40,988 nucleotides of DNA, taken from IMG/VR virus record IMGVR_UViG_3300024284_000006, positions 1-40,988 of that record; one strand, given 5' to 3'. A model generated the notes under the pieces. The model made no database searches. It was given only the letters and a program-made list of their open reading frames with translations, and was not told where the DNA came from. The stretch's first letter is position 1. The number at the start of each line of letters is the position of its first letter. The translations under genes and the position numbers were made by a program. The stretch is from a virus (taxonomy: Duplodnaviria; Caudoviricetes). Below, in pieces: positions 3,167-20,880 of the stretch.

Positions 3167-5154
3167 TGGGTACACTCATCGGTGATTATTTTGTAGAGAA
3201 GGGGCAAAACATTCCGTCTAGTTCGGCCGGTGTCACTAAACAACAAACACCAGCAAAAAAGAAGCCTGGGGGGCTCGGGGGGCTCTTAAGTGCTGTGGCG
3301 CGACCTTTTAACCAGTTACTTATTGAACCGACTGTTTCTGCCACTAAACAATTAGCAGCCGAAGTTACAGGAAACAAAGTCGCTGAAGTGAACGCTAGAA
3401 AAAACTTATTCGGTGGTGCTAAAACCGCTGAGGATGCCTTGAAGAACATTGCCGGTAACGCTGCTCAAGTTGGTGCGACTTTTGTGGCACCCGGAGCCAC
3501 AGGTATCGGCTCAAAAATTGTACAGGGAGCAAAGGCCGGAGCTCTAGCCGGGGGTGGACAAGCCCTTGCAAACCATGAGGATGTACTTAAAGGTACGCTC
3601 GGGGGGGCCACTATTGGCGGCTCCACCAGTGGGATTTTAAGTAAGGTACTTAAGAGTAGTGGACCCAAGACCTCCGCTAGCAACTCGTTTCTTAAGAACC
3701 TAACAACGCAAGGTCAACAAATGCAGGCCAGAGGGCTTGGGATTAGCGGTGGCGCAAAAGTCGCCGGCAAAGAGCTTGCACCTCAAGATACCGAGAGAAT
3801 GCTAAATGTACTGAAAAACGAAGGTATTCAGCCGGGCAATGCTAACAGTGCCGCACGAGAGCTAAACGTAAAACTCAAAACATATGGACAACAGATAGCG
3901 GATCATTTTAAAACCAATAACGCTCCTTTGCACCCAGAGGACACAAAAGCTATAGCATCCAACTTTATTGGGGGTTTAGGGACAACTGATCCAAGTGTCT
4001 TAAAACAGGCTCAGATTCTGGCCAATGATTTACGGAAAAATGTTAAAGATACCAAGACTTTATGGGAGTTCAGAAAAACCCTTGATAGCAAGATACCAGA
4101 TACTAAATTTATGGATGCGGCCACATCTAACAAAGTGACTGCTCTCAAAGCAATGCGGGAATATATATCAAAGGAGTTAGGGGACACCCCTGGGATGCAA
4201 GGGTATCATAATTTGTCGGAGATCAAACCATTTTTGGGTAAAGGTATGCGCGAGTTGAATCAACCCAGCGGAGGAGTGATCGGTCGTATAGTTTCAAGCG
4301 GGCCGGCCCAAAAGGTCGAAGCAGGGATAGGTAAAAACGTAGAGAGATTAGGTAAAATAGGGGACTTGCCCGTCGAAACGACTCCGTCAAGTTCAAGAGA
4401 AGGCTTTTTGAATAGAATGCTATATAAAGCCGCTGGGAGTCGTGCCGCACCAGCCGTTGTAACCGAAGGGGTAATGAATAATCGTACCGATCCAATAAGC
4501 CAAGACCAATCTAGTGCGGATCTAGTGCCCTCGCTTGACTTGGCACCCAGTTCTAATCAGTCTACACAGCCTTACAATGAAAAAACTACTCAAAGCTCAG
4601 ATCCTTTCGCTCCCGAAAATGTGCCGAATCTAGTCGGGTTAATACTCTCACAGGGAGGGACGCAAAAAGATGTTGCAGAATACCTAGCAAACGTAGAGCT
4701 ATATCAAAAACTTACAGCTTCTTCCCCCAAGTCTAAGATCGGTGTTGTGAGTAGTCAGAATTATGCGAATGCGTTAAGTGGCTCTCAAAGCATTCAGGCC
4801 TTGAGAGATAAACTGACACAGAATCCTTCTCTTCTGACAAAAAGTGCTATACCTGGGGGTAGCCTGCCCATCATTGGAGGTTACATTAAGAACATTAGTG
4901 GCACTGGCGAACTAGATGCGTTGGCATACAATATTGCTGATAAATACCTAAAACTTACGACAGGCGCAACAGCTACTGATGCTGAGATTAAAAATACGGC
5001 CACAAAATTGATGCCCCGGGCAGGAGATAGCCCAGATACTGTCAAACTTAAGCTACAACAGCTTGAGGATTACTATAATACGATCATTGGACAGGCAAAT
5101 GGTCAAACAAATGATGCAGGTATCCAAGATATACTAGCTAATAATGGATCATAG
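3166..5154 (+). CDS. Putative large ejection/DNA-transfer protein
   Basis: ~662 aa with G/A-rich amphipathic segments typical of podoviral ejection proteins; TAATG coupling at 3164-3168. Confidence 0.55.
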   Translation: MGTLIGDYFVEKGQNIPSSSAGVTKQQTPAKKKPGGLGGLLSAVARPFNQLLIEPTVSATKQLAAEVTGNKVAEVNARKNLFGGAKTAEDALKNIAGNAAQVGATFVAPGATGIGSKIVQGAKAGALAGGGQALANHEDVLKGTLGGATIGGSTSGILSKVLKSSGPKTSASNSFLKNLTTQGQQMQARGLGISGGAKVAGKELAPQDTERMLNVLKNEGIQPGNANSAARELNVKLKTYGQQIADHFKTNNAPLHPEDTKAIASNFIGGLGTTDPSVLKQAQILANDLRKNVKDTKTLWEFRKTLDSKIPDTKFMDAATSNKVTALKAMREYISKELGDTPGMQGYHNLSEIKPFLGKGMRELNQPSGGVIGRIVSSGPAQKVEAGIGKNVERLGKIGDLPVETTPSSSREGFLNRMLYKAAGSRAAPAVVTEGVMNNRTDPISQDQSSADLVPSLDLAPSSNQSTQPYNEKTTQSSDPFAPENVPNLVGLILSQGGTQKDVAEYLANVELYQKLTASSPKSKIGVVSSQNYANALSGSQSIQALRDKLTQNPSLLTKSAIPGGSLPIIGGYIKNISGTGELDALAYNIADKYLKLTTGATATDAEIKNTATKLMPRAGDSPDTVKLKLQQLEDYYNTIIGQANGQTNDAGIQDILANNGS

Positions 5155-5163
5155 GAGGACATT

Positions 5164-5340
5164 ATGAACACGATTAAGAAAACCGGCACATTTCACGGTA
5201 AGAGCAACAAACTCGGTGGTGGTGGCAGATTTGCTCAAATGGAAGCCAAAGGCATGAGCGGTGGCCTGGCTGCCTTTATTGGTCGCAAACTCTATGGCAA
5301 GAAAAAGATGGTCAAGATGGCTGCAAAGGCCAAGAAGTAG
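5164..5340 (+). CDS. 58-aa highly basic Lys/Gly-rich protein
   Basis: AGGAGG RBS; MNTIKKTGTFHGKSNKLGGGGRFAQMEAKG...KAKK; not in the ORF track. Confidence 0.7.
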   Translation: MNTIKKTGTFHGKSNKLGGGGRFAQMEAKGMSGGLAAFIGRKLYGKKKMVKMAAKAKK

Positions 5341-5540: not shown

Positions 5541-5569
5541 ATTATACCATGTGGATAACTATATGTCAA
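5541..5569 (-). promoter_or_regulatory. Consensus sigma70 promoter with a DnaA box in the spacer
   Basis: TTGACA-17-TATAAT on the minus strand; TTATCCACA at 5550-5558 (minus). Confidence 0.8.
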
Positions 5570-5576
5570 TGGCATT

Positions 5577-5604
5577 TTGACGTTCTTAATAGACCTGCTA
5601 TAAT
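5577..5604 (+). promoter_or_regulatory. Sigma70 promoter for a short non-coding RNA
   Basis: TTGACG-16-TATAAT with extended TG; no convincing ORF downstream. Confidence 0.7.
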
Positions 5605-6390: not shown

Positions 6391-7971
6391 TTACTTTTCC
6401 GTGTTATCCGCAAAGACGACACCGAGGCCAACTTTGATGGTTTCGGCGGCCATGCCGGTGGCGTGGGTTATTACTTCTCTCACGACGACGTAGGGGTCAA
6501 CGACTCCGGACTTTACAACGTCTACTAACTGATCGCCCTCTTTCAGGTTGTAGCCTTGACCTTTGGGTGCTTTGAGAGCTTCGTCGAGTTTTAGTTCTGC
6601 GGGCAGGTTGGCATTGATGAGTAGCTGTTGAAAGGTGGCACGCAAGGCGTTGCGCGTAATGTCGGACACATCTAGCTTGCTGAGCTCGAGCATCGACACA
6701 CCGCCACCAGGTACGATGCCTTCGGCGTAGGCGTGGCGGGTGGAGTTGATGGCGTCTTCTACCCTGAACTCGATTTCTTCTTTGGTGGAATCGGTTGGCG
6801 CGCCGATTTTAAAGATGGCGATCTTGCCTTCTAATTTTGCGACACGGTCTTTTAGCTTTTCGGCGACTGCTGGGACCTCTTCGTTGGCTATTTGGTCCTT
6901 GATTTCGGCTATGCGGACCTGGATGTCTTCGGTATCGTTGGCAGCAAAGAGGGTTGACTCGCTTTTGTTAGCCACGACTTTGTCGACTGTGCCGATGTAG
7001 TGTGAGTATGGTTTGTTGTCGCGAGTGATGACGAAGTTTTTGAGGTTGGTAGTTTCGCTGATGAGCTCGCAGCCAGCGTAGAGGGCAATGTCGCTAAGCA
7101 GATACTTGCCGAGTTCGCCGTACATGGGAGGAGTTTTGATGATGACGGCGTCGATTTGGCCGGCGTTGATGGTGTTGACAATGGTTTGGTAGGCGGCGTC
7201 TTCAATATTGCCAATGAAGAGGATGCGCGGGATTTGGCCCTGTTGGAGGTTTTTGGCGCGCATGAGCCCGTTGAGAATGTCAATAGCGTCTGCACTGGAG
7301 CTGAGACGTTTGCTGGAGATGATAACGTACGGATCTACGAGCTCTTTCTTGCCCGCCTGGAGGGCTGTGAAGCCGGATTGGAGGTAGTAGCCGTCAATAT
7401 ATTCGCGCTCGATCTCGTTGATGGGAGCTTTTTCGGTGAGGATGCCGCCGTCTGGACCCACATAGAGCAATGCCTCGGCAATGAGTTGGCCGATGAGGGG
7501 GTCGCCTGCTGATACGGTAGCGACTTCTTGGAGTTGTTCGTCTTTGACAGGGATAACAAGTTTTTTGAGCTCATCGAGGAGTATGTAGCTGTCTTTTTTG
7601 ATGGTATCGCTGACATCCATGGGATGTTGGCCGGCCGCAACAGCTTGTACGGCGTTTTTGAGGAGGTTGTAGGTAAGTACGACTGTGGCGGAACTGCCGT
7701 CCCCGGAGACATTGTTGGCGGCGCGAGAGGCTTCTGCTAGGGCCTGAGCGCCCATGTTGAGTACGCGGTCGGAAAAGAACACTTGCTCGACGATGGTTAC
7801 GCCATCTCTGGTGTATGTGGGGCGGCCAAAGCCGCGCTCTAGTAAGACGTTCTTACCTTTTGGTCCGTATGTTTTGCTGACTGCTTCAAAGGCGGCTTTT
7901 GCGCCTTCGAGGAGTTGTTGCCGTAGTTTGTCTTCTTGGACGAGGATTCGCCCTTCTTTTTTATCTGCCAT
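6391..7971 (-). CDS. groEL: Chaperonin GroEL/Cpn60-like protein
   Basis: TYGPKGKNV, TRDGVTI, GDGSSATVV, RVEDAINST, GIVPGGG and GVVDP match Cpn60 signature motifs; no GGM tail. Confidence 0.95.
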   Translation of the reverse strand: MADKKEGRILVQEDKLRQQLLEGAKAAFEAVSKTYGPKGKNVLLERGFGRPTYTRDGVTIVEQVFFSDRVLNMGAQALAEASRAANNVSGDGSSATVVLTYNLLKNAVQAVAAGQHPMDVSDTIKKDSYILLDELKKLVIPVKDEQLQEVATVSAGDPLIGQLIAEALLYVGPDGGILTEKAPINEIEREYIDGYYLQSGFTALQAGKKELVDPYVIISSKRLSSSADAIDILNGLMRAKNLQQGQIPRILFIGNIEDAAYQTIVNTINAGQIDAVIIKTPPMYGELGKYLLSDIALYAGCELISETTNLKNFVITRDNKPYSHYIGTVDKVVANKSESTLFAANDTEDIQVRIAEIKDQIANEEVPAVAEKLKDRVAKLEGKIAIFKIGAPTDSTKEEIEFRVEDAINSTRHAYAEGIVPGGGVSMLELSKLDVSDITRNALRATFQQLLINANLPAELKLDEALKAPKGQGYNLKEGDQLVDVVKSGVVDPYVVVREVITHATGMAAETIKVGLGVVFADNTEK

Positions 7972-11579: not shown

Positions 11580-11807
11580 TTAATTGATAGGCTCAGCAAT
11601 CTTTTTCGTAAAACCAGACCCTCTGACAGGGTACAGTGCTATTTGGATAAGCAGTATGTCTATGAAATCAAGATTCGCGAGAATGGAAACATGTAGACGG
11701 TGACCGAGTGCGCCCACCGCAAGCATTGTGATCCAGGGGAATAGCGTCAAGCTGAGCCCTAGGGTTACTAATGAGTCTTTAGGGTCGTTCTTAATTGTGT
11801 ATTTCAT
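11580..11807 (-). CDS. Small membrane protein
   Basis: GGAG RBS before MKYTIK; two hydrophobic segments. Confidence 0.6.
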   Translation of the reverse strand: MKYTIKNDPKDSLVTLGLSLTLFPWITMLAVGALGHRLHVSILANLDFIDILLIQIALYPVRGSGFTKKIAEPIN

Positions 11808-11931
11808 AGGTGTTTTCTCCAAATTTACTTATTATTAACATATTGATGTTCTGCAAACCAGTGGGCTTTACAAACCCATTTGCCTCTGATGTATTCGGTG
11901 GCTGGGTTGGGGCATTGCGAGCTGCAAAGGA

Positions 11932-12489
11932 TCATCGTTTTAGCCTGAAGTCTTTCTTTTTGATCTTGACCATTCGGCCATCGGGATGGTGCCAGACTAG
12001 ACCTTCGATATCTTTGTCTGTAAGCCATTGTTTGAGCATTTCAAACTCCAGTGGTACATTCTCGTATTCAGTGGCAAGACTGTGCTTTTTAAGCTGGTGC
12101 TCTCCGACTTTCTCTGGATTCCCCTGGACTTTTGGACCAAGAAGCTCATAGGTACCATCTGACAGAGAAACGTTGTCAGGATTGCCACCTTTGGCGGCTT
12201 CACGAAACCATTTGTCCTCTGCGCCCCAACCGACTTGGACCCAGCCCATTGTCTTTCCGGTGGTCTCGTCGTGGTCTACTGGCTCAAAGTCTGGTGGGGC
12301 TGTACGACCTGCTTTAAGTTCGTAGCGCTTGTACATCTTATGGTCACGGATAAGCACACAGGTACCGTCGTATTTACGCGTAGCTACGCCTTCGCCACGT
12401 ATCACCCATTCGGTGCCTTCAGAGTATGCATCGTAGACTTGGCCACCGTTCTCGAAATCTCGCTTAAACAATGTTGGTATTTTCTTCAT
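11932..12489 (-). CDS. RNA-ligase-like nucleotidyltransferase (DUF5565-like)
   Basis: ATRKYDGT (KxDG motif I), YELLG, IEGLVW, MVKIK (motifs III-V). Confidence 0.7.
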   Translation of the reverse strand: MKKIPTLFKRDFENGGQVYDAYSEGTEWVIRGEGVATRKYDGTCVLIRDHKMYKRYELKAGRTAPPDFEPVDHDETTGKTMGWVQVGWGAEDKWFREAAKGGNPDNVSLSDGTYELLGPKVQGNPEKVGEHQLKKHSLATEYENVPLEFEMLKQWLTDKDIEGLVWHHPDGRMVKIKKKDFRLKR

Positions 12490-12595
12490 TTCTTTCCCCT
12501 CATCATATTTATTAACTCCTTAAGTGGTAAATAGATCAGCAGCCCTAGAATTGAGACTAGGAGCATGATTGCTATGAAGCTTTTGATAGCATCGG

Positions 12596-12973
12596 TCATT
12601 TCAGGAGCTCCGGGTTTTCGTGAATGTTGCCGACAACACGGTAGTTGCTGGATTCGTACTTAAAAAGATTGGCGTTGCTATACTTATATCTTGCATAGTT
12701 AACGTCCCACTCAAAACACATGAGTTTTGTAGGTTGCTCTTTAAAAACATAAGCACCATTACTGAAATCGGCAACTTCACAAATATCACTCTCATAAATC
12801 TCAACACCATTTTTGTCTTTCAAGCCTGTGTACTGCATAAGCTCTACTTGATCGGGGCGATATTTCATAGTGTGATGGCTCGCCATAACTTTTTCTTCGC
12901 CACTGAGGGGCAACACACCAACATCAGCGTACATCTTGTGTCCGTCCCACGCCCTAAATTTTATTTCACGCAT
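12596..12973 (-). CDS. YopX family protein
   Basis: MREIKFRAWD...LMQYTGLKDKNGVEIYESDI...VVGNIHENPELL. Confidence 0.9.
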   Translation of the reverse strand: MREIKFRAWDGHKMYADVGVLPLSGEEKVMASHHTMKYRPDQVELMQYTGLKDKNGVEIYESDICEVADFSNGAYVFKEQPTKLMCFEWDVNYARYKYSNANLFKYESSNYRVVGNIHENPELLK

Positions 12974-13262
12974 ACTTCTTTCCCTTCTCCAGCCCAAGCT
13001 GAGCTCTAATCTCCGCACAAGCATTGTCTCGTCCAGGGCTTGCACTACCTTTTTCAGCTGCTTGGAGGGCGGTTTCTACTTGTTTGCGGAGGAGGTAGTT
13101 GGCCTCTCTATCCTGCTTAATGAGCTGCATGATCTGGTCAGTCGTCAGGTTCAATGCTGTATTTATAGTTTTATAATCGGCAAGGCCTTTGGTTTCTTCA
13201 CCGTATTGAAAGGCGTCATTCACTTTGTGGCGAATGGCTATTTTTAGTGCTTCATCATCCAT
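12966..13262 (-). CDS. Hypothetical protein
   Basis: 98 aa, overlapping chain of early genes. Confidence 0.65.
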   Translation of the reverse strand: MDDEALKIAIRHKVNDAFQYGEETKGLADYKTINTALNLTTDQIMQLIKQDREANYLLRKQVETALQAAEKGSASPGRDNACAEIRAQLGLEKGKKYA

Positions 13263-13521
13263 TGGTCTTTCCCTCTATTAAAGCCATTTTTTTAGTCAGT
13301 GACGCAAAAGAATCTAGCATTTCTTCGTTCATGAGCTGGAGCTTCTCGTATGAATCGCACATGAACACCAGACCTTCATAAAGCCTTTGCACGCGGTCGT
13401 CAAAGAGACCGTCGTTGTTGAGGGATGCTTTAAGCTGGAACATGATAGAACGATATTCTTTTAAAGATAACGCAACTTTAGCAACACTGCTTTTTTTAAT
13501 TTTCTGATCTACCTTATCCAT
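13255..13521 (-). CDS. Hypothetical protein
   Basis: Start MDKVDQ after GGAGG. Confidence 0.65.
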   Translation of the reverse strand: MDKVDQKIKKSSVAKVALSLKEYRSIMFQLKASLNNDGLFDDRVQRLYEGLVFMCDSYEKLQLMNEEMLDSFASLTKKMALIEGKTNG

Positions 13522-13921
13522 TGGTCTTTCCTCCAAGCTGGCCTGCGTCGTCTAATGCGATTACTAGTTTTAGGAGGGCTTTGAGAGGGGTATCAGCGTA
13601 CTGACTTCTCAGGCTCGCAAACTTGTATGCCGCTCTGTAGCGCATAGCTACGGTGGTTGTTGATTGCTTTTGTACAAAGACTCCCTTTTCGATGCGAGGG
13701 TTTTGCAAACCGGTCTCATCAGGTAGTTTCTCTAGTATATAGTCGGAGGTGTAGAGGGGGCAGTACCAGAACATTTTTGAATCGTCGTAGTTATGCTCAG
13801 TCTTGACCCAAACATCATTAGACTTGAAGTCAACGGGTATGTAGAAAGCCTCTAAAGTGTCCTTCCACCCAGTACGCTGATACACCTTCTTGCAAAGCTC
13901 AAGTAGTTCTTTATCTTGCAT
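13514..13921 (-). CDS. Hypothetical phage protein
   Basis: Start MQDKEL; contains PLYTSDYILEKLP and ADTPLKALLKL segments. Confidence 0.7.
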   Translation of the reverse strand: MQDKELLELCKKVYQRTGWKDTLEAFYIPVDFKSNDVWVKTEHNYDDSKMFWYCPLYTSDYILEKLPDETGLQNPRIEKGVFVQKQSTTTVAMRYRAAYKFASLRSQYADTPLKALLKLVIALDDAGQLGGKTNG

Positions 13922-14297
13922 TGGTCTTTCCTTCCTGTTTGAGGTGGCGCACATCTGCATTAATCTTGTCTGCCATTCTTCGTACCTGTAGAGCCGCTTT
14001 TAAATCGTGCTCGCTAATGCTTTTAGATTTTCGCACAGGTTTGTACCCGTGCTTTTCCTGTAGCCTCTCCATAATTAACTTCTCGACTAGACTTGCTGGT
14101 TCAGTCGCATAGTATAGATCACACAGCAGACTCCTCTCTGCTTCCATGATTACGTCGTAAAAGAAGGTGGCTAGGGACTGATTCTCGGTAACTTGTTTGT
14201 CTTCGTTAAACCAAATATCTCGGCCACCATCGAAAGGCTTTACTAACTTGAATCCCAATGACTGCATCCACACTGCTACTTTTTCTTGTTTGGTCAT
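13911..14297 (-). CDS. Hypothetical protein
   Basis: 128 aa, ATGA coupling. Confidence 0.65.
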   Translation of the reverse strand: MTKQEKVAVWMQSLGFKLVKPFDGGRDIWFNEDKQVTENQSLATFFYDVIMEAERSLLCDLYYATEPASLVEKLIMERLQEKHGYKPVRKSKSISEHDLKAALQVRRMADKINADVRHLKQEGKTNAR

Positions 14298-14560
14298 GAC
14301 TCTATCGCTTGATCCTTAGTTGCCTTTAGCTCTCGTAACTTTGATTCAATGCGCTCGATAGCAACCTCAAATTGGCGCATTATTGGGCCTTCAGTACCTA
14401 ATGCTTCAGCCTGATGTTGCAGTGACTTAGCGACTGTCCATTGGCCTTGATATCTAGCAATGGAAAGCAGGTTATCTACTTCTCTGTGAGCTACTCTCGT
14501 TATATCTAGGTGGTCTTCTACTTGCATAATATCCTCTCCTTTAGTTTTCTTACTCATCAC
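14294..14560 (-). CDS. Hypothetical protein
   Basis: 88 aa in the coupled chain. Confidence 0.6.
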   Translation of the reverse strand: MMSKKTKGEDIMQVEDHLDITRVAHREVDNLLSIARYQGQWTVAKSLQHQAEALGTEGPIMRQFEVAIERIESKLRELKATKDQAIES

Positions 14561-15090
14561 TCTGTGCCTTTCTTTAGTTGCTGGAGGCGCTCAACTTTTT
14601 GCTTGCCAGTGGAGGCGGCAAAACCCGTTCTACCTTTATTCCATGGTTTTTTGCCAAGATTATCAAATGAGTGTCGCTCATTCTCAGAATATGTAGCCCA
14701 CTCAAGATTGCTGACATCGTTGTTTACTTTGTTGCCATCAATATGATTGACACAGGGTTTATTCTCTGGATTGGCTAAGAACGCCATAGCAACGAGACGA
14801 TGCACAAACATGCACTTGCCATATCCAAGCGATATACGCTCATATCCGCTAACCAATGCAGGCTTTAATATTTTGCCAGTTTTGGACGAGCGAACCTTGC
14901 CTGTATTACTAACCTCATATCCTTGGTTACCAGTTGGCACAAATACCTCCCGTGCCTCCCTCAGCATCTGGGTGAAAAGCTGCTCAGCTTCTACAGGGCC
15001 GAAGTAGAATTGTGCGCTCTCATAACGAGCCTCGAAGTTCCTAATACCTTGGATAATTTGCTGTATCCGTTCTGATTCATTTTGTGGCAT
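14557..15090 (-). CDS. NUMOD4-HNH homing endonuclease fused to a helical N-terminus
   Basis: YEVSNTGKVRS, VHRLVAMAFL, VNHIDGNKVNNDVSNLEW. Confidence 0.9.
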   Translation of the reverse strand: MPQNESERIQQIIQGIRNFEARYESAQFYFGPVEAEQLFTQMLREAREVFVPTGNQGYEVSNTGKVRSSKTGKILKPALVSGYERISLGYGKCMFVHRLVAMAFLANPENKPCVNHIDGNKVNNDVSNLEWATYSENERHSFDNLGKKPWNKGRTGFAASTGKQKVERLQQLKKGTE

Positions 15091-15092
15091 GG

Positions 15093-15287
15093 CTAGGACT
15101 CAATCATTTCTGCTAACTCTTGCTTAGTGTAGCCGTGTATGTAGTAATAATCTTCTGGCATTGGTTCACCGGCGTGCCCGTTACCACTGACTTCATCATC
15201 AATCCACTTCTGTACTTCTTTCTTTGTGCGGGCCATGAACTCACAGCCTTCATCGCCAACAGCACCGTATTTCACGATTTTGCTCAT
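15093..15287 (-). CDS. Hypothetical protein
   Basis: 64 aa, GGAG RBS. Confidence 0.6.
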   Translation of the reverse strand: MSKIVKYGAVGDEGCEFMARTKKEVQKWIDDEVSGNGHAGEPMPEDYYYIHGYTKQELAEMIES

Positions 15288-15586
15288 ATATTCTCCAGTT
15301 CTTTGGTTAGTTTCTGGTAAATGCTTGCCTTAATAGTATTAAGGACTGATTGGACTTCACCACCTTCTTCAAATCCAGATAGCTCAGTATTTATCAGCTC
15401 CAGCACCCTCGTGATTGTGTCCTTTTGGGTTTGGGCGTAGCGGCTTAGCACGCCATCTACAAACTCGCGCCTTGCTTGGGCTTTGGCTTCTCTAACATAC
15501 TGGGGGTCACTCTTTTGGATGGGAACCCATGATTCTATATAGCCAGTTAGCCAGGCTTCTAGCTCTTCGCGCTGTGGGGCTGTCAT
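15284..15586 (-). CDS. Hypothetical protein
   Basis: 100 aa, coupled. Confidence 0.6.
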   Translation of the reverse strand: MTAPQREELEAWLTGYIESWVPIQKSDPQYVREAKAQARREFVDGVLSRYAQTQKDTITRVLELINTELSGFEEGGEVQSVLNTIKASIYQKLTKELENI

Positions 15587-15768
15587 TCTGGTATCCCTTG
15601 TACACCATGCTGCTTAAGAAGCTGTTTAGCGGCCTCGTAGTCTCGAAAATCGCTTGCTGGATTTGCTATTAATTGTGCAAGCTGTTTATCTGTACGGGTG
15701 GCCAAATAACTAAGTCTACGTCGCATATCATCCTGCTGGCTGGACTCTAGTAAATCTTGGAAGGTCAT
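15583..15768 (-). CDS. Hypothetical protein
   Basis: 61 aa, AAGGAG RBS. Confidence 0.6.
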   Translation of the reverse strand: MTFQDLLESSQQDDMRRRLSYLATRTDKQLAQLIANPASDFRDYEAAKQLLKQHGVQGIPE

Positions 15769-15772
15769 ATAT

Positions 15773-15946
15773 CTATTTCTCCTTTATGCCTATATTCAAT
15801 GATTTCCGAGCTGCATTTTCTCTTGACTCCATCAGCTTTGCGTAGCCAGCAATAAGCACTGGGCGTGCTTCTGGATGTGCTACGATGTCTCTAACGAAGT
15901 CTTCAAGGAATTGTTTGGGGGTTGCTGGTTCAGTTTCTGTGCTCAT
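15773..15946 (-). CDS. Hypothetical protein
   Basis: Start MSTETE after AAGGAG. Confidence 0.6.
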   Translation of the reverse strand: MSTETEPATPKQFLEDFVRDIVAHPEARPVLIAGYAKLMESRENAARKSLNIGIKEK

Positions 15947-16114
15947 GACTTTCTCCTTAAAATCCACCGACAACTATCTCTAAGAACTTTCCCCAGATGA
16001 GTGATAGAATCACAAGTGCGAACCCAGAGATCCCGAGAAGCAGTGTGAATGTGTGTGCGGTGCTTCTTAGTTTCATTGTATGTTTCAAACTTGAGTTTAT
16101 AGTCTTTCCAGGGG

Positions 16115-16315
16115 TCATGAGCCATACCGTTCCCGTAGACCTTTTTTGGCAGCTTCTTTTGCCCGGTCTCTGTTAGCGGCGAAGCCTTTGTTTGGGTTTT
16201 TGACTTTTCCACCCTTGCGCCCAATCTCTTGGTAGACTTTCCGTACTTCCTCAACGCTGCCATACTTGGCAATACGGCTTTTCCACCACGGTGTATCGTA
16301 ATCACTTGTTGCCAT
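16115..16315 (-). CDS. KGG-repeat (general stress/Con-10-like) small protein
   Basis: EIGRKGGK...GFAANRDRAKEAAKKG. Confidence 0.75.
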   Translation of the reverse strand: MATSDYDTPWWKSRIAKYGSVEEVRKVYQEIGRKGGKVKNPNKGFAANRDRAKEAAKKGLRERYGS

Positions 16316-16505
16316 TTTTCTTGCCTCTTCTGGAGATTTTCCCGCCTTTGGCACCGGCGATTCGGGCGAGCTCACGGTTGGCGTAGAAGCCACCGGTGTG
16401 GCCGTTTTTGCCTCCAATTGCTCCAATGTTGACAAAGAAATCGTCTCCGTACCTTTTCTTAATAGTTGCGACGGCGGTGATTGCGCCTGTTTTGGTTCCT
16501 GGCAT
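16302..16505 (-). CDS. KGG-repeat (general stress-like) small protein
   Basis: GGAGG RBS; MPGTKTG...IGAIGGKNGHTGGFYANRELARIAGAKGGKISRR. Confidence 0.8.
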   Translation of the reverse strand: MPGTKTGAITAVATIKKRYGDDFFVNIGAIGGKNGHTGGFYANRELARIAGAKGGKISRRGKKNGNK

Positions 16506-16858
16506 CATTCCTCCATTTCTTCTAAATATTTGCTTCCCTTTTTGTTGTTGCACGCTGCGCAACAGGGCTGTAGGTTTTTGAGTGAGTAGCGTAGTTCTGG
16601 ATGTCTGCTGCGACTTTTGACATGATCGAGTGTGAGTTGTGACCGGGTGAGCAGCTTGCCGCATATGTAGCAAAAGTAATAGGGTGCTTTGTTTTGCTGT
16701 AGCCACCTTTCTCGGGTGTGCATCCAAAGCTTGAAATGCTTTCCCCTGGGACTAAGCGGCTTGCGTTTTGTCCAGGGACAGTGTAGGGAGGTGTGATTAA
16801 CCGACCCGCATTTCTTGCACCCTTTTGGTCTTAGACTGCTGTAGGCGGGCACTGGCAT
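16505..16858 (-). CDS. HNH endonuclease with N-terminal zinc knuckle
   Basis: CKKCGSVNHTSLHC; CYICG...LDHVKSRS...NLQPCCAACNNKKG. Confidence 0.85.
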   Translation of the reverse strand: MPVPAYSSLRPKGCKKCGSVNHTSLHCPWTKRKPLSPRGKHFKLWMHTRERWLQQNKAPYYFCYICGKLLTRSQLTLDHVKSRSRHPELRYSLKNLQPCCAACNNKKGSKYLEEMEE

Positions 16859-16918
16859 ACGGTGCTTACCTTGCGTTTTGTTTGCTTAATAGGTTTGTGG
16901 CACGTGGGACAGAGGCGT

Positions 16919-17257
16919 TCAACTGTCATAGCCGTACTCTTCCATGTGTCGGCGGGTGTGCATGAGCATATTGGTGGGATAGTAGTCGGCGTTAAGTTCC
17001 CAAATGCGAATGATGTGCCCTTTGGCCATTGTGCGGCGGGCCTTGGTGTAGCCAACTGCCTGGAAGATGTCGTCTTGAAAGACTCTACCTAGAAGATTCT
17101 TCTTTATGTATTTAGGTAACGGATGCACTTCGAGCAGGTCTTCGATGGTAATTTGCCCGCGGTTAAGAAGGAGCTTCTGTGCTATTTGGCGCGCTTCCTG
17201 GATCCATTGCTCTTTGTTTGTGCGAAACAAGTCTTGCGTGGTGTTTGGTACCCTCAT
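16919..17257 (-). CDS. Hypothetical protein (possibly winged-helix-like)
   Basis: 112 aa; helical then beta pattern; fold assignment is only a guess. Confidence 0.6.
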   Translation of the reverse strand: MRVPNTTQDLFRTNKEQWIQEARQIAQKLLLNRGQITIEDLLEVHPLPKYIKKNLLGRVFQDDIFQAVGYTKARRTMAKGHIIRIWELNADYYPTNMLMHTRRHMEEYGYDS

Positions 17258-17273
17258 CTTATATCCCCCTTAT

Positions 17274-17930
17274 TTAGTACGCTAGATTGCCGTTTTTTAG
17301 ATCTTCTAGGTCTTTGTCTGTCACCTCGAAGTTGTCTGGTGTTTTCACTTCGTGTACTATCTCCTCTTGTTCAAGGGGAGCGTCTTTGGGTTTTTTGGCG
17401 TAGATTCGAGCTATTGAACTTCTGACGGCAGCCTTGAAGACCATGTTTGGTTTCATGCCGATAGCTTGTTCGATCCAAGCGTCTAGTTCTTCGGCGCTGT
17501 CGATACCAGTCACGTTGTTGGCGGCTCGCCGGAGCTCGGTTATCTCTTTGGCATCTGCAAACTTTGCTTTGCTTTGGTTGGTCGCTTTGTTTATTTCGTC
17601 TACCGAGGCAATACTCTCGATAACCCCAATACCCATCATGGCAAGTGCTCGGCCCACGGCGCTGGTTTCAGCATTCTCTAGGGCTGAGGTTTTGTTGATG
17701 TAGCCGTCACCCCACTTTGCCTGGGAGTAGCCGGTAAAGAACCTATCGGAGTCATCAGGAAATATCTTTGCCTTGACGACTACGAAGTCACTGTCTACCG
17801 CCGATATGAGCTCAGTTTGGATCGAGCCTTTTGGATACATTTCGTTGAAGTAAAGCACGCGATCCGATACAAGGACATATTCCTTGCCCTTGATGTTGAT
17901 GGCCTTGTCTTTTAATTGCTTGTCTGCCAT
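17274..17930 (-). CDS. Single-strand annealing/recombination protein (Rad52/Sak-like)
   Basis: NIKGKEYVLVSDRV...SALENAETSAVGRALAMMGIG...SIASVDE. Confidence 0.65.
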   Translation of the reverse strand: MADKQLKDKAINIKGKEYVLVSDRVLYFNEMYPKGSIQTELISAVDSDFVVVKAKIFPDDSDRFFTGYSQAKWGDGYINKTSALENAETSAVGRALAMMGIGVIESIASVDEINKATNQSKAKFADAKEITELRRAANNVTGIDSAEELDAWIEQAIGMKPNMVFKAAVRSSIARIYAKKPKDAPLEQEEIVHEVKTPDNFEVTDKDLEDLKNGNLAY

Positions 17931-17932
17931 AG

Positions 17933-18169
17933 TTACGCCTCGGTGTACTCGTTATCTTCATTAATCTCTAGGTAGGCCTCCTCCTGACGCCGAGTCAGGT
18001 GTTTGTTGTGACAGTCTGGGCAAAACATTGTCTGCAAGTCACGGTCAAAGTAAATAAGATCGTGTACGCACCGAATTGCTAGGTGCAGACCTTCTTCAAA
18101 GTTTCCTTCGCTCCAGTCGTCGTCTAATGCGTACACACTTGACGGCTGGAGTAGAACATTAATCTTCAT
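17933..18169 (-). CDS. Small zinc-binding protein
   Basis: CVH...CPDC; AAGGAG RBS. Confidence 0.6.
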   Translation of the reverse strand: MKINVLLQPSSVYALDDDWSEGNFEEGLHLAIRCVHDLIYFDRDLQTMFCPDCHNKHLTRRQEEAYLEINEDNEYTEA

Positions 18170-18326
18170 CCGGTTTCTCCTTGTTCTGTAAATCTATGAT
18201 TGTTGCTATCTCGGCCATATATTCTTGGCCGATGGCTACGATCTCGAGCGATATTTTCTGTGATTGCAGTACTAGGTTGCTTAGTTCATCTGTCAGTTCG
18301 AGAGCTTTCTTGATATGGGGGTCCAT
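18159..18326 (-). CDS. 55-aa hypothetical protein
   Basis: TAAGGAGG RBS; MDPHIKKALEL...; not in the ORF track. Confidence 0.6.
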   Translation of the reverse strand: MDPHIKKALELTDELSNLVLQSQKISLEIVAIGQEYMAEIATIIDLQNKEKPDED

Positions 18327-18341
18327 GTTCCTCCTTAATAT

Positions 18342-18508
18342 CTGCTAGCTCTAAGAAGGCCAGGCAGCCCGCACGATGAGCTGTTGGTCTGGCCTTATTG
18401 GAACTAGCAGTTGGTTTGCTAGGTCTTAACGCACCAGAAAGACAGGTGGCCTCGAGGTTACACCTCATATTTGAGTTATCCCCCACCTGTCCATACAGTG
18501 CGTTAAGA
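18342..18508 (-). ncRNA. Structured intergenic RNA with two long stem-loops
   Basis: Pairs 18424-34/18498-508 (11 bp), 18441-49/18483-91 (9 bp), 18356-63/18389-96 (8 bp), 18342-48/18404-10 (7 bp); strand inferred from the operon. Confidence 0.6.
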
Positions 18509-18523
18509 AGTCTCTTTTGATAG

Positions 18524-18679
18524 TTAGAGCTTGGCTAGGACTGCTATCGATTGTTGGTCGCCGGGCTGTCGTTTTAGATGTTTGGCGATCTTTCGTTTCT
18601 TGTTAGCGGCAATTCTTGTAGGTCCATTAGCGTACCTAATCTTTTGCGACGGGCTGGGCCCAGTTAAATGTTTCGGCAT
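18524..18679 (-). CDS. 51-aa basic protein
   Basis: TAAGGAG RBS; MPKHLTG...AANKKRKIAKHLKRQPGD; not in the ORF track. Confidence 0.6.
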   Translation of the reverse strand: MPKHLTGPSPSQKIRYANGPTRIAANKKRKIAKHLKRQPGDQQSIAVLAKL

Positions 18680-18703
18680 ATGTACTCCTTAATACTCTTA
18701 TCT

Positions 18704-19126
18704 CTACCACCACTTCTGGCTAATCCATGTGCTGTAGGCACCCCACCACCCGCCGTATCGGCTATTTGCATAGGTGGTGAAGTGTTTGAGCTGACAGACT
18801 GCGTTCAGATCAGGACAGTCACTCTGGAGAACGCTCGCGGGGCATCTTTGGCCAAGTCCGAGGCAACCTTCGCTGTTTAAGGCATCTGGTTGCCAAGAGC
18901 TCTCGTGGCCCACGATGTATTCCACGGCATCCCACTCAGACGCAGGAATACCTGCGGCCTGCATGAGTGACTGGTGATCTGTAATTGGTGGCTGTGGAGC
19001 AGGCTCGGGAGCCGGTATTGGTTCTGGAGCTGCTACCACGGGTTCTGTTTGTTGTGTTGGTATCTGCGAGGCTTCTGCTTGCGCAGCAGGTCGCACCTCA
19101 CCTGACGACCTTACTGTTTTAACGAC
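18704..19126 (-). CDS. Lytic transglycosylase (SLT/aggregation-promoting-factor-like) domain
   Basis: YIVGHESSWQPDALN..GCLGLGQ..YANSRYGGW; frame is open only up to 19126. Confidence 0.8.
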   Translation of the reverse strand, partial: VVKTVRSSGEVRPAAQAEASQIPTQQTEPVVAAPEPIPAPEPAPQPPITDHQSLMQAAGIPASEWDAVEYIVGHESSWQPDALNSEGCLGLGQRCPASVLQSDCPDLNAVCQLKHFTTYANSRYGGWWGAYSTWISQKWW

Positions 19127-19287
19127 TTAGCTTGCAGGGAAACCATTGCTTTGGCTTCTTGCTTTACTTGACCGTTGACATGCGCTTGGTACTTCATGCC
19201 GGCTACAAAGGCGATAACGCCTGTAACAAGGACTGCGATTGCAATTGTCTTAAGTGTTTCTCGGGTTGTTTTACTTGGTGTCTTCAT
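19111..19287 (-). CDS. 58-aa membrane-anchor ORF, probable N-terminus of the transglycosylase via -1 frameshift
   Basis: TAAGGAG RBS; TM segment IAIAVLVTGVIAFVAG; ends G-TTA-AAA-CAG-TAA. Confidence 0.65.
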   Translation of the reverse strand: MKTPSKTTRETLKTIAIAVLVTGVIAFVAGMKYQAHVNGQVKQEAKAMVSLQAKSLKQ

Positions 19288-19568
19288 AGTGAATTCTCCT
19301 TAGTGTTTTTTGGTTTGTTTGTTTTTAAACGCTTAATTGTTAAGGTTCACCTTGCTGTCACTTCCGCATTGATACTGCCAATGGTCAGGCGATCAGTCTT
19401 TAGGGCGCATTTAATACACCGTTTGCACGGTCATTAATGCTTGTGTGTGATTTTCCTAAGCTAGTGGCAGCTCCAGGCCGGTAATATGACCGCTGGTCAG
19501 CGCTTTCACTGGGGGACAGGTTTCGTTACCTGCTGAGGTCAAAATGCTGTATCGTGACCTCAGGTAAT

Positions 19569-19601
19569 AAAAAAACCGTTCTGCTTTTCTACAGAACGGT
19601 T
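19569..19601 (-). terminator. Intrinsic terminator downstream of the tRNA 3' fragment
   Basis: AACCGTTCTG-TAGAAAAG-CAGAACGGTT-TTTTT. Confidence 0.85.
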
Positions 19602-19614
19602 GTTGTATCTCTGT

Positions 19615-19648
19615 TGGCTGGGGCGGAGGGATTCGAACCCCCGAATGC
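19615..19648 (-). mobile_element. attP core: 3' half of tRNA-Gln
   Basis: GCATTCGGGGGTTCGAATCCCTCCGCCCCAGCCA has a T-arm, acceptor 3' strand, G discriminator and CCA, typical of tRNA-Gln; no D or anticodon arm; about 125 nt from the integrase stop. Confidence 0.8.
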
Positions 19649-19743
19649 AATTACCGAATCTTATCTGTAGATTCAGTCCCCCGAATTGGAGAACAACAAT
19701 GTTTTCTGTAGAAAACGTTTTGTGTTGTGAATGAACTAATTAC

Positions 19744-19772
19744 ATCCTAGCATAAGCATTGGATGCTGTCAA
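19744..19772 (-). promoter_or_regulatory. Sigma70 promoter firing across attP into the early operon
   Basis: TTGACA-17-TAGGAT with extended TG, immediately after the integrase stop. Confidence 0.75.
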
Positions 19773-20624
19773 CTACTTTTTGGGTATGCGGGAGTGAAAC
19801 TCTGTATATGACTTGTCGCGCTTCTTGTCGCCTATATGCACATAGATCTGGGTTGTACTAATGCTCGTATGGCGGAGCTGTTCTTTAATATCGTAGAGAT
19901 CGGCACCATTAAGTCGCAGGTCACTGGCAAAGCTGTGGCGCATAACGTGGGGTGTTACATTCTTATCTATACCGGCCATATCGGCGTAGACGTGCATGAC
20001 CTGTTGGACGCGACTTACTGTTATCCGGCGGTATTGACCAGAGACAAAGAGAGGCTTCAGTTTATCTTTACGACTTGCGAGATAGTCGTCCAAGTATTGC
20101 AGGGCAACCTCGTCAAAGCGAAGAACCCCTATCTTACTTCCCTTCCCCACAATTTCGGCTCGACCATCTCTAAGGCTATCTCTGTTTAGGCTCAAGAGCT
20201 CCGAGATGCGCGCCCCACTACTAAAGAGGCAGGCGACGATTGCCTTATCACGAAGATTCTCGATAACACCAAGAAGTTGTGTCACCTCATCTAGTTCTAA
20301 CCATACAGGGGGTCGCTTTATAATTGTGGGCAGTTCAACATCACGGTAGTTCATAACCAAAAGACCGCGGCGCCTGAGATACTTAAGAACCTGGCGTAAG
20401 TGGGAGAGCTGGTGGGCTACAGTAGAACTCTGGAGGCCTCTGTACTCCATGAGGGTCACCCAACGAATACACGTCTCGTACGTAATAGTTTCTACCGCTA
20501 CATCGCCACATGCTTTAATAAAAGAATTACACGATGATCGATAGTTTCTCTTGGTTTTTTCTGCCTTCCCGCGTAGCCATAGCTGTGTACTGATGTACTG
20601 AGCAAAGGCTTCGGAAATGGTCAT
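19773..20624 (-). CDS. int: Tyrosine recombinase/integrase (XerC/D-like)
   Basis: SGARISELL, GKGSK, TPHVMRHSFA, LRHTSISTTQIY (R-K-H-R-H-Y catalytic set). Confidence 0.95.
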   Translation of the reverse strand: MTISEAFAQYISTQLWLRGKAEKTKRNYRSSCNSFIKACGDVAVETITYETCIRWVTLMEYRGLQSSTVAHQLSHLRQVLKYLRRRGLLVMNYRDVELPTIIKRPPVWLELDEVTQLLGVIENLRDKAIVACLFSSGARISELLSLNRDSLRDGRAEIVGKGSKIGVLRFDEVALQYLDDYLASRKDKLKPLFVSGQYRRITVSRVQQVMHVYADMAGIDKNVTPHVMRHSFASDLRLNGADLYDIKEQLRHTSISTTQIYVHIGDKKRDKSYTEFHSRIPKK

Positions 20625-20656: not shown

Positions 20657-20880
20657 GTTTAGACTCACCTACCTAAAAAGGTTATTTATGGTTTGATGAA
20701 ACCCCACTCTTGAGTAGCCAGTCTGTGTCCTCCCTTCCTGACACGGTCACTGACCACTTTATAACACCGTACATCCCCATAAAACAATCTGATTTAAATC
20801 ACCGTTAATCTTTGTTCTTTACACTAGATTTGCTATCTGTTTTCTTTTTTGGACCTACGCATATTGGGCACAGGCAAGCC

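Follow-up and report, generated by a model that had tools for sequence, protein, structure and literature searches.

A candidate RNA antiterminator and its cognate terminator lie on either side of the predicted attP of a temperate phage that likely infects Saccharibacteria

The nearest published case to the locus described here is the integrative element ICEKp1, in which, in the accessible part of the paper, excision joins a promoter at the 3' end of the element across attP to a terminator-like structure, the target being the 3' end of a tRNA gene (PMC13023037). A 15-bp segment upstream of attP was required for reporter activity in that system; its pairing with a stem-loop (SL3) is an in silico proposal that was said to need validation (PMC13023037). 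Our account of the following systems likewise follows the accessible portions of their sources. The Pcirc promoter of ICEclc is a further case of an excision-dependent end promoter (PMC5812530). Tn916 has a terminator (T1) at the element end that insulates its genes from host promoters, and an RNA antiterminator of the element (canT) that is needed after excision, is processive and acts on heterologous terminators (PMC11658703). Mycobacteriophage BPs has attP in its repressor gene, and its integration yields a stable protein repressor (PMC4557955). The P4 CI RNA with seqA, and the C4 RNAs, combine RNA-RNA pairing with premature termination behind a constitutive promoter, with CI, whose locus lies within a Bro-network gene, acting in trans (PMC10111431). 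ICEclc Pcirc, Tn916, BPs and P4 CI are all further from our case than ICEKp1. Other patescibacterial prophages have been reported in a paper whose accessible text contains neither 'attP' nor 'repressor' (PMC13059738), and in the literature outside subscription journals we found no description of a switch of the kind proposed below in a phage. The principle has already been published for ICEKp1 int and for Tn916, and its use in phage lysogeny seems new.

We analyzed a 40,988-nt stretch of DNA (hereafter the window), which is a complete circular phage genome of ~40.9 kb (127-nt terminal repeat; classed as having direct terminal repeats and as 100% complete) in which family searches recognized a terminase, a portal, a capsid, an endolysin and a 283-residue tyrosine integrase. 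The integrase gene lies beside a fragment of a tRNA 3' end that matches a host gene letter for letter, which is the pattern of a temperate phage that targets tRNA genes. Of 120 host loci fetched, 77 contained an exact match to the 34-bp core of this fragment; by title, most of these loci were from Patescibacteria, including Saccharibacteria. Across the 77, ARAGORN called 72 tRNA-Gln sites, identity to the window was gone beyond 36 bp, and no whole tRNA was called in the window itself. Related prophages were found in genomes belonging to the same class as a Saccharimonadales record, so the host of this phage is likely a Saccharibacterium. No close relative of the integrase was seen among GenBank phages (the best among the matches listed was ~30% identical), and a single-protein integrase scan of viral contigs gave no match. 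The features of the region, in the order in which the minus strand is read, are as follows.

19773-20624, minus strand: tyrosine integrase, 283 aa, with a SAM-like N domain and a catalytic domain (PHROG 1, E-value 2e-50; PF00589, PF02899)
19744-19772, minus strand: predicted sigma-70 promoter, TTGACA-17-TAGGAT with a TG extension, 10/12 by pattern scan, in the same place after the integrase gene in relatives
19704-19715, minus strand: leader segment a, TTTTCTACAGAA, the putative antiterminator strand, folded in the terminated form within a local 6-bp hairpin (19716-19701)
19689-19699, minus strand: leader segment b, 11 nt, TTGTTGT (19699-19693) plus TCTC (19692-19689), predicted by stepwise prefix folding to pair with the trailer before segment a does
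19670-19687, minus strand: second, degenerate T-arm core, lying 40 bp upstream of the true core (repeat D7, 17 nt, 82%)
19653-19677, minus strand: middle hairpin by folding, its ACAGATA loop being the third TCTACAGA copy
19615-19648, minus strand: predicted attP core, 34 bp identical to the tRNA-Gln 3' end including CCA
19600-19611, minus strand: trailer segment b', GAGA-T-ACAACAA (GAGA 19611-19608, ACAACAA 19606-19600), by pairing computation
19596-19585, minus strand: segment a', TTCTGTAGAAAA, the upper 5' arm and loop of the terminator, separated from ACAACAA by ccg
19569-19601, minus strand: predicted intrinsic terminator, 11-bp stem (19601-19574) with 7 U, by terminator scan
19517-19563, minus strand: two more hairpins directly past the terminator, by folding
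11580-19287, minus strand: early operon of small ORFs, with an SLT transglycosylase-like gene near its start, HNH nucleases, YopX and an RNA ligase (ORF list, family searches)

Every coordinate in a preliminary description of this region was confirmed when we re-checked it, and so was its central observation that attP, here the predicted core at 19648-19615, lies between the promoter with its leader and the terminator of the early operon. The promoter-like site (19772-19744) was the best between positions 5600 and 23000 and is abutted by the integrase stop codon (19775-19773, minus strand), and transcription would start (+1) near 19737. It is followed by an 89-nt leader, the 34-bp core, a 13-nt spacer, the 11-bp terminator-like hairpin with its seven T residues, and the early operon of ~8 kb, past the end of which is another terminator-like hairpin (11528-11507). 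The integrase gene is upstream of the promoter, so the regulated unit downstream of attP is not the integrase. The only minus-strand ORF over the core (19650-19456, TTG start) runs through the tRNA fragment and the terminator, and an Rfam search of the region returned a weak tmRNA T-arm match alone (E-value 0.059). A stretch like the degenerate T-arm copy was also present in three relatives (L123, L122 and L125), and this copy is possibly an accessory integrase site; the loop letters of the middle hairpin were retained in L123 despite its differing leader and terminator. A low-depth contig of a related strain, a weak source, had 11 differences from the window over 19651-19852, the 10 listed all falling at 19740-19821 and none of these in the leader or the promoter hexamers. 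By eye, a long and a small hairpin directly follow the terminator in most relatives and could be a second antitermination or protein-binding element. We claim no covariation for these downstream hairpins, because RNAalifold on a MAFFT alignment gave no consensus and a motif framed after the fact, which matched 5/17 elements, missed the window.

The 12 + 7 bp of complementarity between leader and terminator in the preliminary description proved exact, and the helix was longer than claimed, with four further pairs between TCTC (19692-19689) and GAGA (19611-19608). The resulting 23-bp leader:trailer helix (12 + 7 + 4) had a duplex energy of -25.9 kcal/mol (p = 0.002 versus 500 leader shuffles), the window leader ranked first of 18 leaders on its own terminator side, and a search for the bipartite pattern matched the window at just two places, one on each strand (chance mean 0.00). 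The folding order was predicted by stepwise prefix folding of the transcript. A 6-bp hairpin is predicted to mask segment a at first while the core folds into a tRNA-like domain; b:b' would be closed round this domain by nucleotide 130-140, and by nucleotide 147-153 the terminator's entire loop and the upper part of its 5' arm would be paired with segment a (P = 0.71, arm average). With the 3' arm present, the terminator fold is predicted to be 4.0 kcal/mol more stable (P = 0.90 in the window), and the terminator was the dominant full-length fold in 16/20 rows, so that read-through must be kinetic or assisted. Given this difference of 4 kcal/mol, and since the unpaired CCG could seed refolding, we consider read-through to be probably kinetic and partial. 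In models of attL built with three host tRNA 5' parts, the terminator arm had no upstream pairing (P = 0.00) and the terminator formed with P = 0.97.

We consider the best reading of this locus, with a probability of roughly 0.7, to be a co-transcriptional antiterminator that is cut in two by recombination. In the circular phage the leader would pair with the first arm and loop of the terminator, and RNA polymerase would read into the early operon; b:b' would close round the tRNA-like core first, and segment a would then capture the 5' arm and loop ahead of synthesis of the 3' arm. Integration would move the promoter and leader to the far prophage end (attR), and in the prophage the same hairpin would just end the transcript of the restored host tRNA. 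The early genes of a lysogen would thereby be silenced, and induction would begin with excision. Insertion would likely switch off the early genes, possibly without a repressor protein. From sequence we can show how the parts are arranged, that leader and terminator are complementary, that this complementarity covaries among relatives, and that in related prophages the two are physically separated.

That split was seen in six relatives (G242, G341, G326, G412, G415 and G416). At one end (attR), the integrase gene, promoter and leader run up to a tRNA-Gly copy, past which lies other DNA; at the other (attL), the terminator and early genes lie behind a tRNA. The three genomes have this second tRNA complete, and in the three virus records the contig begins inside it. 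One of the six, G242, is a complete prophage, its ~34 kb between attL and attR encoding SLT, RusA, terminase, capsid, lysin and integrase. Differences between the two tRNA copies confine the crossover to the 3' side of the D-loop, short of the tRNA end, and in these related prophages it is thus bounded within the tRNA homology, where the preliminary description had placed it. In G406, a tRNA-Gln element like that of the window, the same 127 nt lead once to the terminator and early genes and once to foreign DNA, junctions that we read as attP and attR in one assembly; another tRNA-Gln 3' half is found ~2.1 kb beyond the foreign-DNA junction. For the window's own phage, four contig sets yielded neither an attL nor an attR joint. 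The G242 prophage also has a KwaB-like gene (L404:5478-6443) and an Acb2/Tad1-like gene (L405:14579-14908).

Relatives were collected via the integrase, the architecture pattern and the SLT gene, which gave a first set of 20 elements with boundaries drawn by hand, of which 18 were counted and two near-duplicates set aside. Left out were L122, whose contig stops after CCA, L124 and L398, which have the integrase gene without this leader next to it, and SLT loci without leader or other junction (such as L278, L281, L288, L292 and L300). Against 500 dinucleotide shuffles of the leader, with a threshold of p ≤ 0.05, pairing was significant for arm plus loop in 12/18 elements, for the whole trailer in 13/18 and for either in 15/18, and each measure gave the cognate leader the top rank among the 18 in 12 cases. 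The three elements that failed both tests were G406 (p = 0.056), L282 and L389. Because this set had been delimited after looking, we built a second set by rules fixed beforehand from 54 new loci of a second integrase subfamily (the 53 closer of 80 matches plus one more); 4 were too short, 16 had no promoter, 7 had no terminator and 6 were duplicates, leaving 21 to be tested. Pairing was significant for arm plus loop in 11/21, for the whole trailer in 14/21 and for either in 17/21, with 4/21 failing both tests, and the cognate leader was first in just 8/21 (arm) and 6/21 (trailer), several members being related to one another. The arm figure is the cleaner one in this set, since inverted tRNA pieces inside the automatic boundaries inflate the whole-trailer figure in some cases. 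We observed tRNA fragments that were reversed, or in both orientations, between leader and terminator in L508-L510, L512, L524, L533, L537 and L538. As controls, host tRNA-Gln genes with a terminator (the 19 of 120 loci that passed the filter) gave 2/19 for arm plus loop and 0/19 for the trailer, and host tRNA genes with their own promoter (the 14 of 23 loci with a terminator) gave 0/14 on both measures.

Complementarity is conserved across relatives while the letters themselves vary, with G-U pairs and bulges tolerated in the leader:terminator helices. L123, whose integrase is 50-53% identical to that of the window, as is that of G406, has other letters and kept the pairing at p = 0.004. The prophages G242 and G341 are 97.7% identical in the integrase and 98% identical over the 300 nt past the terminator, versus 57% at the leader ends and 53% in the trailers. 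The G341 leader scored -27.9 with its own trailer versus -8.6 with the other type; the reverse cross was less clean (-16 to -20 for type-1 leaders with the type-2 trailer). A compensatory single change was seen between G412 (leader G, arm C) and G413 (leader A, arm T), and G242 is a mismatched combination with one mismatch (-19.1 for its own pair versus -23.8 with the G413 trailer). Wider searches added little: a metagenome integrase scan gave mostly distant XerD-like matches, of which we used 3 loci; 401 host-class genomes had no close integrase (E-value ≤ 1e-60) and no strict promoter-leader-tRNA pattern; and a scan for the motif upstream of the core gave 26 matches and no new relatives. A scan for a promoter with a dif half-site gave 22 matches, none with an integrase or SLT gene and 0 pairing in the 2 that were testable, which we took as chance.

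The cores of the first set were pieces or whole copies of several tRNAs (Gln and Gly by ARAGORN, others that we take to be Pro, Asn and Thr), two non-tRNA sequences beside an integrase gene, and two sites in records without a tyrosine recombinase. In these last two (L291 and L295) the leader and terminator are kept. A 15-mer between leader and terminator of L295 (2699-2713) was present in 55/81 host-class genomes, mostly once (control, 1), and is part of a 9-6-9 palindrome (L410-L421), the left arm of which is shared by L291 (~2830). This palindrome of Saccharimonadia-class genomes is presumably the dif site, which suggests that the site in L291 and L295 would be used by host Xer recombinases; a recombination site would therefore still part the two strands where there is no integrase. 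Whatever its kind, be it a tRNA, a non-tRNA palindrome or a dif-like site, an att-like site always separates the strands in the sequences compared. G406 carries a further copy of the palindromic site (L408), and L291 has an upstream hairpin at ~2685-2725 with a loop that exactly repeats the leader's 13-nt segment.

A temperate phage would ordinarily be expected to depend on a repressor. HTH_3 was found above the cut-off in 0/10 records, with one weak match in G406 (E-value 0.0016), and S24 in 0/5 records; no repressor family was found among the window ORFs (78 searched against PHROGs, 76 against Pfam) or 53 ORFs of G242. The earlier idea of silencing without a repressor stands to the extent that no known repressor family was recognized, which is an absence of families and not a demonstration, and because most of the phage ORFs have no family an unrecognized repressor is possible. 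Nor did we find a separate promoter past the terminator, which would have spoken against the preliminary model: no site of at least 9/12 occurs in the 300 nt after the window terminator, such sites are absent there from 14/17 elements (the window included), and in the other 3/17, which belong to a single tRNA-Gly clade, there is one such site each, a weak one of 9/12. In L124, a close integrase relative, the leader is replaced by a convergent gene (4767-5189, minus strand) that we take to be LexA-like, and L124 may represent a repressor-using branch. We also noted ACGGTG followed by seven A/T (ACGGTG-W7, 13 bp) in three copies on the minus strand of the window, one in the early leader region (19410-19422) and two upstream of the integrase gene (20758-20770 and 20793-20805), with a chance mean of 0.17 for a pattern chosen after seeing it; it is possibly an operator or a directionality-factor site, and its copies around the integrase gene leave room for a protein regulator. 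Further upstream, at 21840-21720 (minus strand), a candidate extended -10 promoter seen by eye only, and not passed by the scan, has a hairpin-rich leader; a strong terminator-like hairpin (21760-21724) precedes the genes for a 93-residue protein, HNH and the integrase, and the 21840-21720 leader strand is complementary to the terminator arm, a pairing that folding did not favor.

Two other accounts of the leader-terminator pair accept the RNA helix and give it a different role. It might be an attenuator set mainly by a factor in trans, either a P4 CI-like RNA (e.g., the released tRNA trailer) or a phage protein, with the att site secondary and the cassettes serving as immunity types. The bipartite a/b complementarity, the small hairpin masking segment a, the unrelated cassettes in 98%-identical prophages, the equilibrium preference for the terminator fold and the three ACGGTG-W7 copies are all consistent with such a factor, but neither the window region nor 14 related loci had an Rfam match of C4/CI type (the related loci gave tRNAs only), the cofold of a finished trailer with the leader gained just 0.2-5.9 kcal/mol in 8/8 tested (2.7 kcal/mol in the window, from b:b' pairs alone), and an att-like site of whatever kind lies between the strands. 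Leader and trailer are adjacent at attP and so would be swapped together under either model, and on balance we think a trans-set attenuator unlikely. We give still less credence to the long helix as an RNase III or RNase P processing signal on integrase read-through RNA, which, like lambda sib, would destabilize int mRNA while the phage is circular. No terminator-like site was found between the integrase gene and the leader on the minus strand, and the helix closes a tRNA-like domain (in G412 the predicted fold closes a whole tRNA-Gly cloverleaf); against this, the pairing is aimed at the 5' arm and loop of the terminator (12/18 and 11/21), the promoter-like site is kept directly before the leader, and the arrangement persists in the two records without an integrase.

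The preliminary description had itself offered an alternative in which the TCTACAGA copies are DNA sites for protein binding of the arm type, the RNA complementarity being incidental. Three copies do lie within 125 bp around the core (19588 on the plus strand, 19664-71 and 19705-12 on the minus strand), but two of them are simply the two strands of the helix, and L123 and G406 carry other letters there, with the pairing kept in L123. Because the letters of leader and terminator change freely among relatives, arm-type sites are not supported, and covariation so contradicts this reading that we regard it as very improbable.

The antiterminator split by recombination, which remains our preferred reading, would work like the arrangements of ICEKp1 and Tn916 yet belongs to neither family, and these are closer to it than BPs, which the preliminary description had named as the known analogy. 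As in ICEKp1 and ICEclc, a promoter-like site lies upstream of the core and is found at attR in related prophages. The ICEKp1 promoter tunes int alone, going by the accessible part of that paper, whereas here the integrase gene is upstream of the promoter and the gated unit is the phage early operon, and in G242 most of the genome; the pairing, unlike that of ICEKp1, is bipartite, supported by covariation and found also across non-tRNA and dif-like sites. With the same limit on the sources for the other systems, the predicted terminator resembles Tn916 T1 in lying directly behind an intact tRNA at attL, facing host transcription. Unlike canT, the leader has a single cognate terminator as its complement, and recombination separates the two; because the complementarity is cognate we argue for a mode other than that of canT. 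As in BPs, integration itself would alter the regulatory state, but there is no recognized repressor gene over this attP or in the window. As with P4 CI, early transcription would be under RNA-RNA pairing and premature termination; here, unlike P4, the pairing is across attP, there is no Rfam match to C4 or isrK, and the predicted trans pairing is weak.

More tentatively, and with somewhat less than even odds, we suggest that a widespread family of Patescibacteria phages keeps lysogeny without any repressor protein, recombination acting as the master switch that parts an RNA antiterminator from its terminator, in a design that would be portable across tRNA, palindromic and dif-like att sites and would use swappable leader-trailer cassettes, which may be immunity types. 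If integration alone silences the lytic program, this would be a minimal lysis-lysogeny switch suited to hosts with tiny genomes; induction would then start with excision, and lysogens may lack ordinary superinfection immunity. The module is ~200 bp and could be tested with purified polymerase though the hosts are hard to culture. It would bring comparative support for a kind of pairing proposed just in silico for ICEKp1, and could serve as a compact recombinase-gated part for synthetic circuits.

Elsewhere in the window, the 93-residue ORF (21583-21302) had look-alikes only among unnamed viral proteins, a phage-borne GroEL is encoded at 6391-7971 on the minus strand (PHROG, E-value 3e-94), and a divergent pair of near-consensus promoters lies at 5569 (minus strand, 12/12) and 5577 (plus strand, 11/12).
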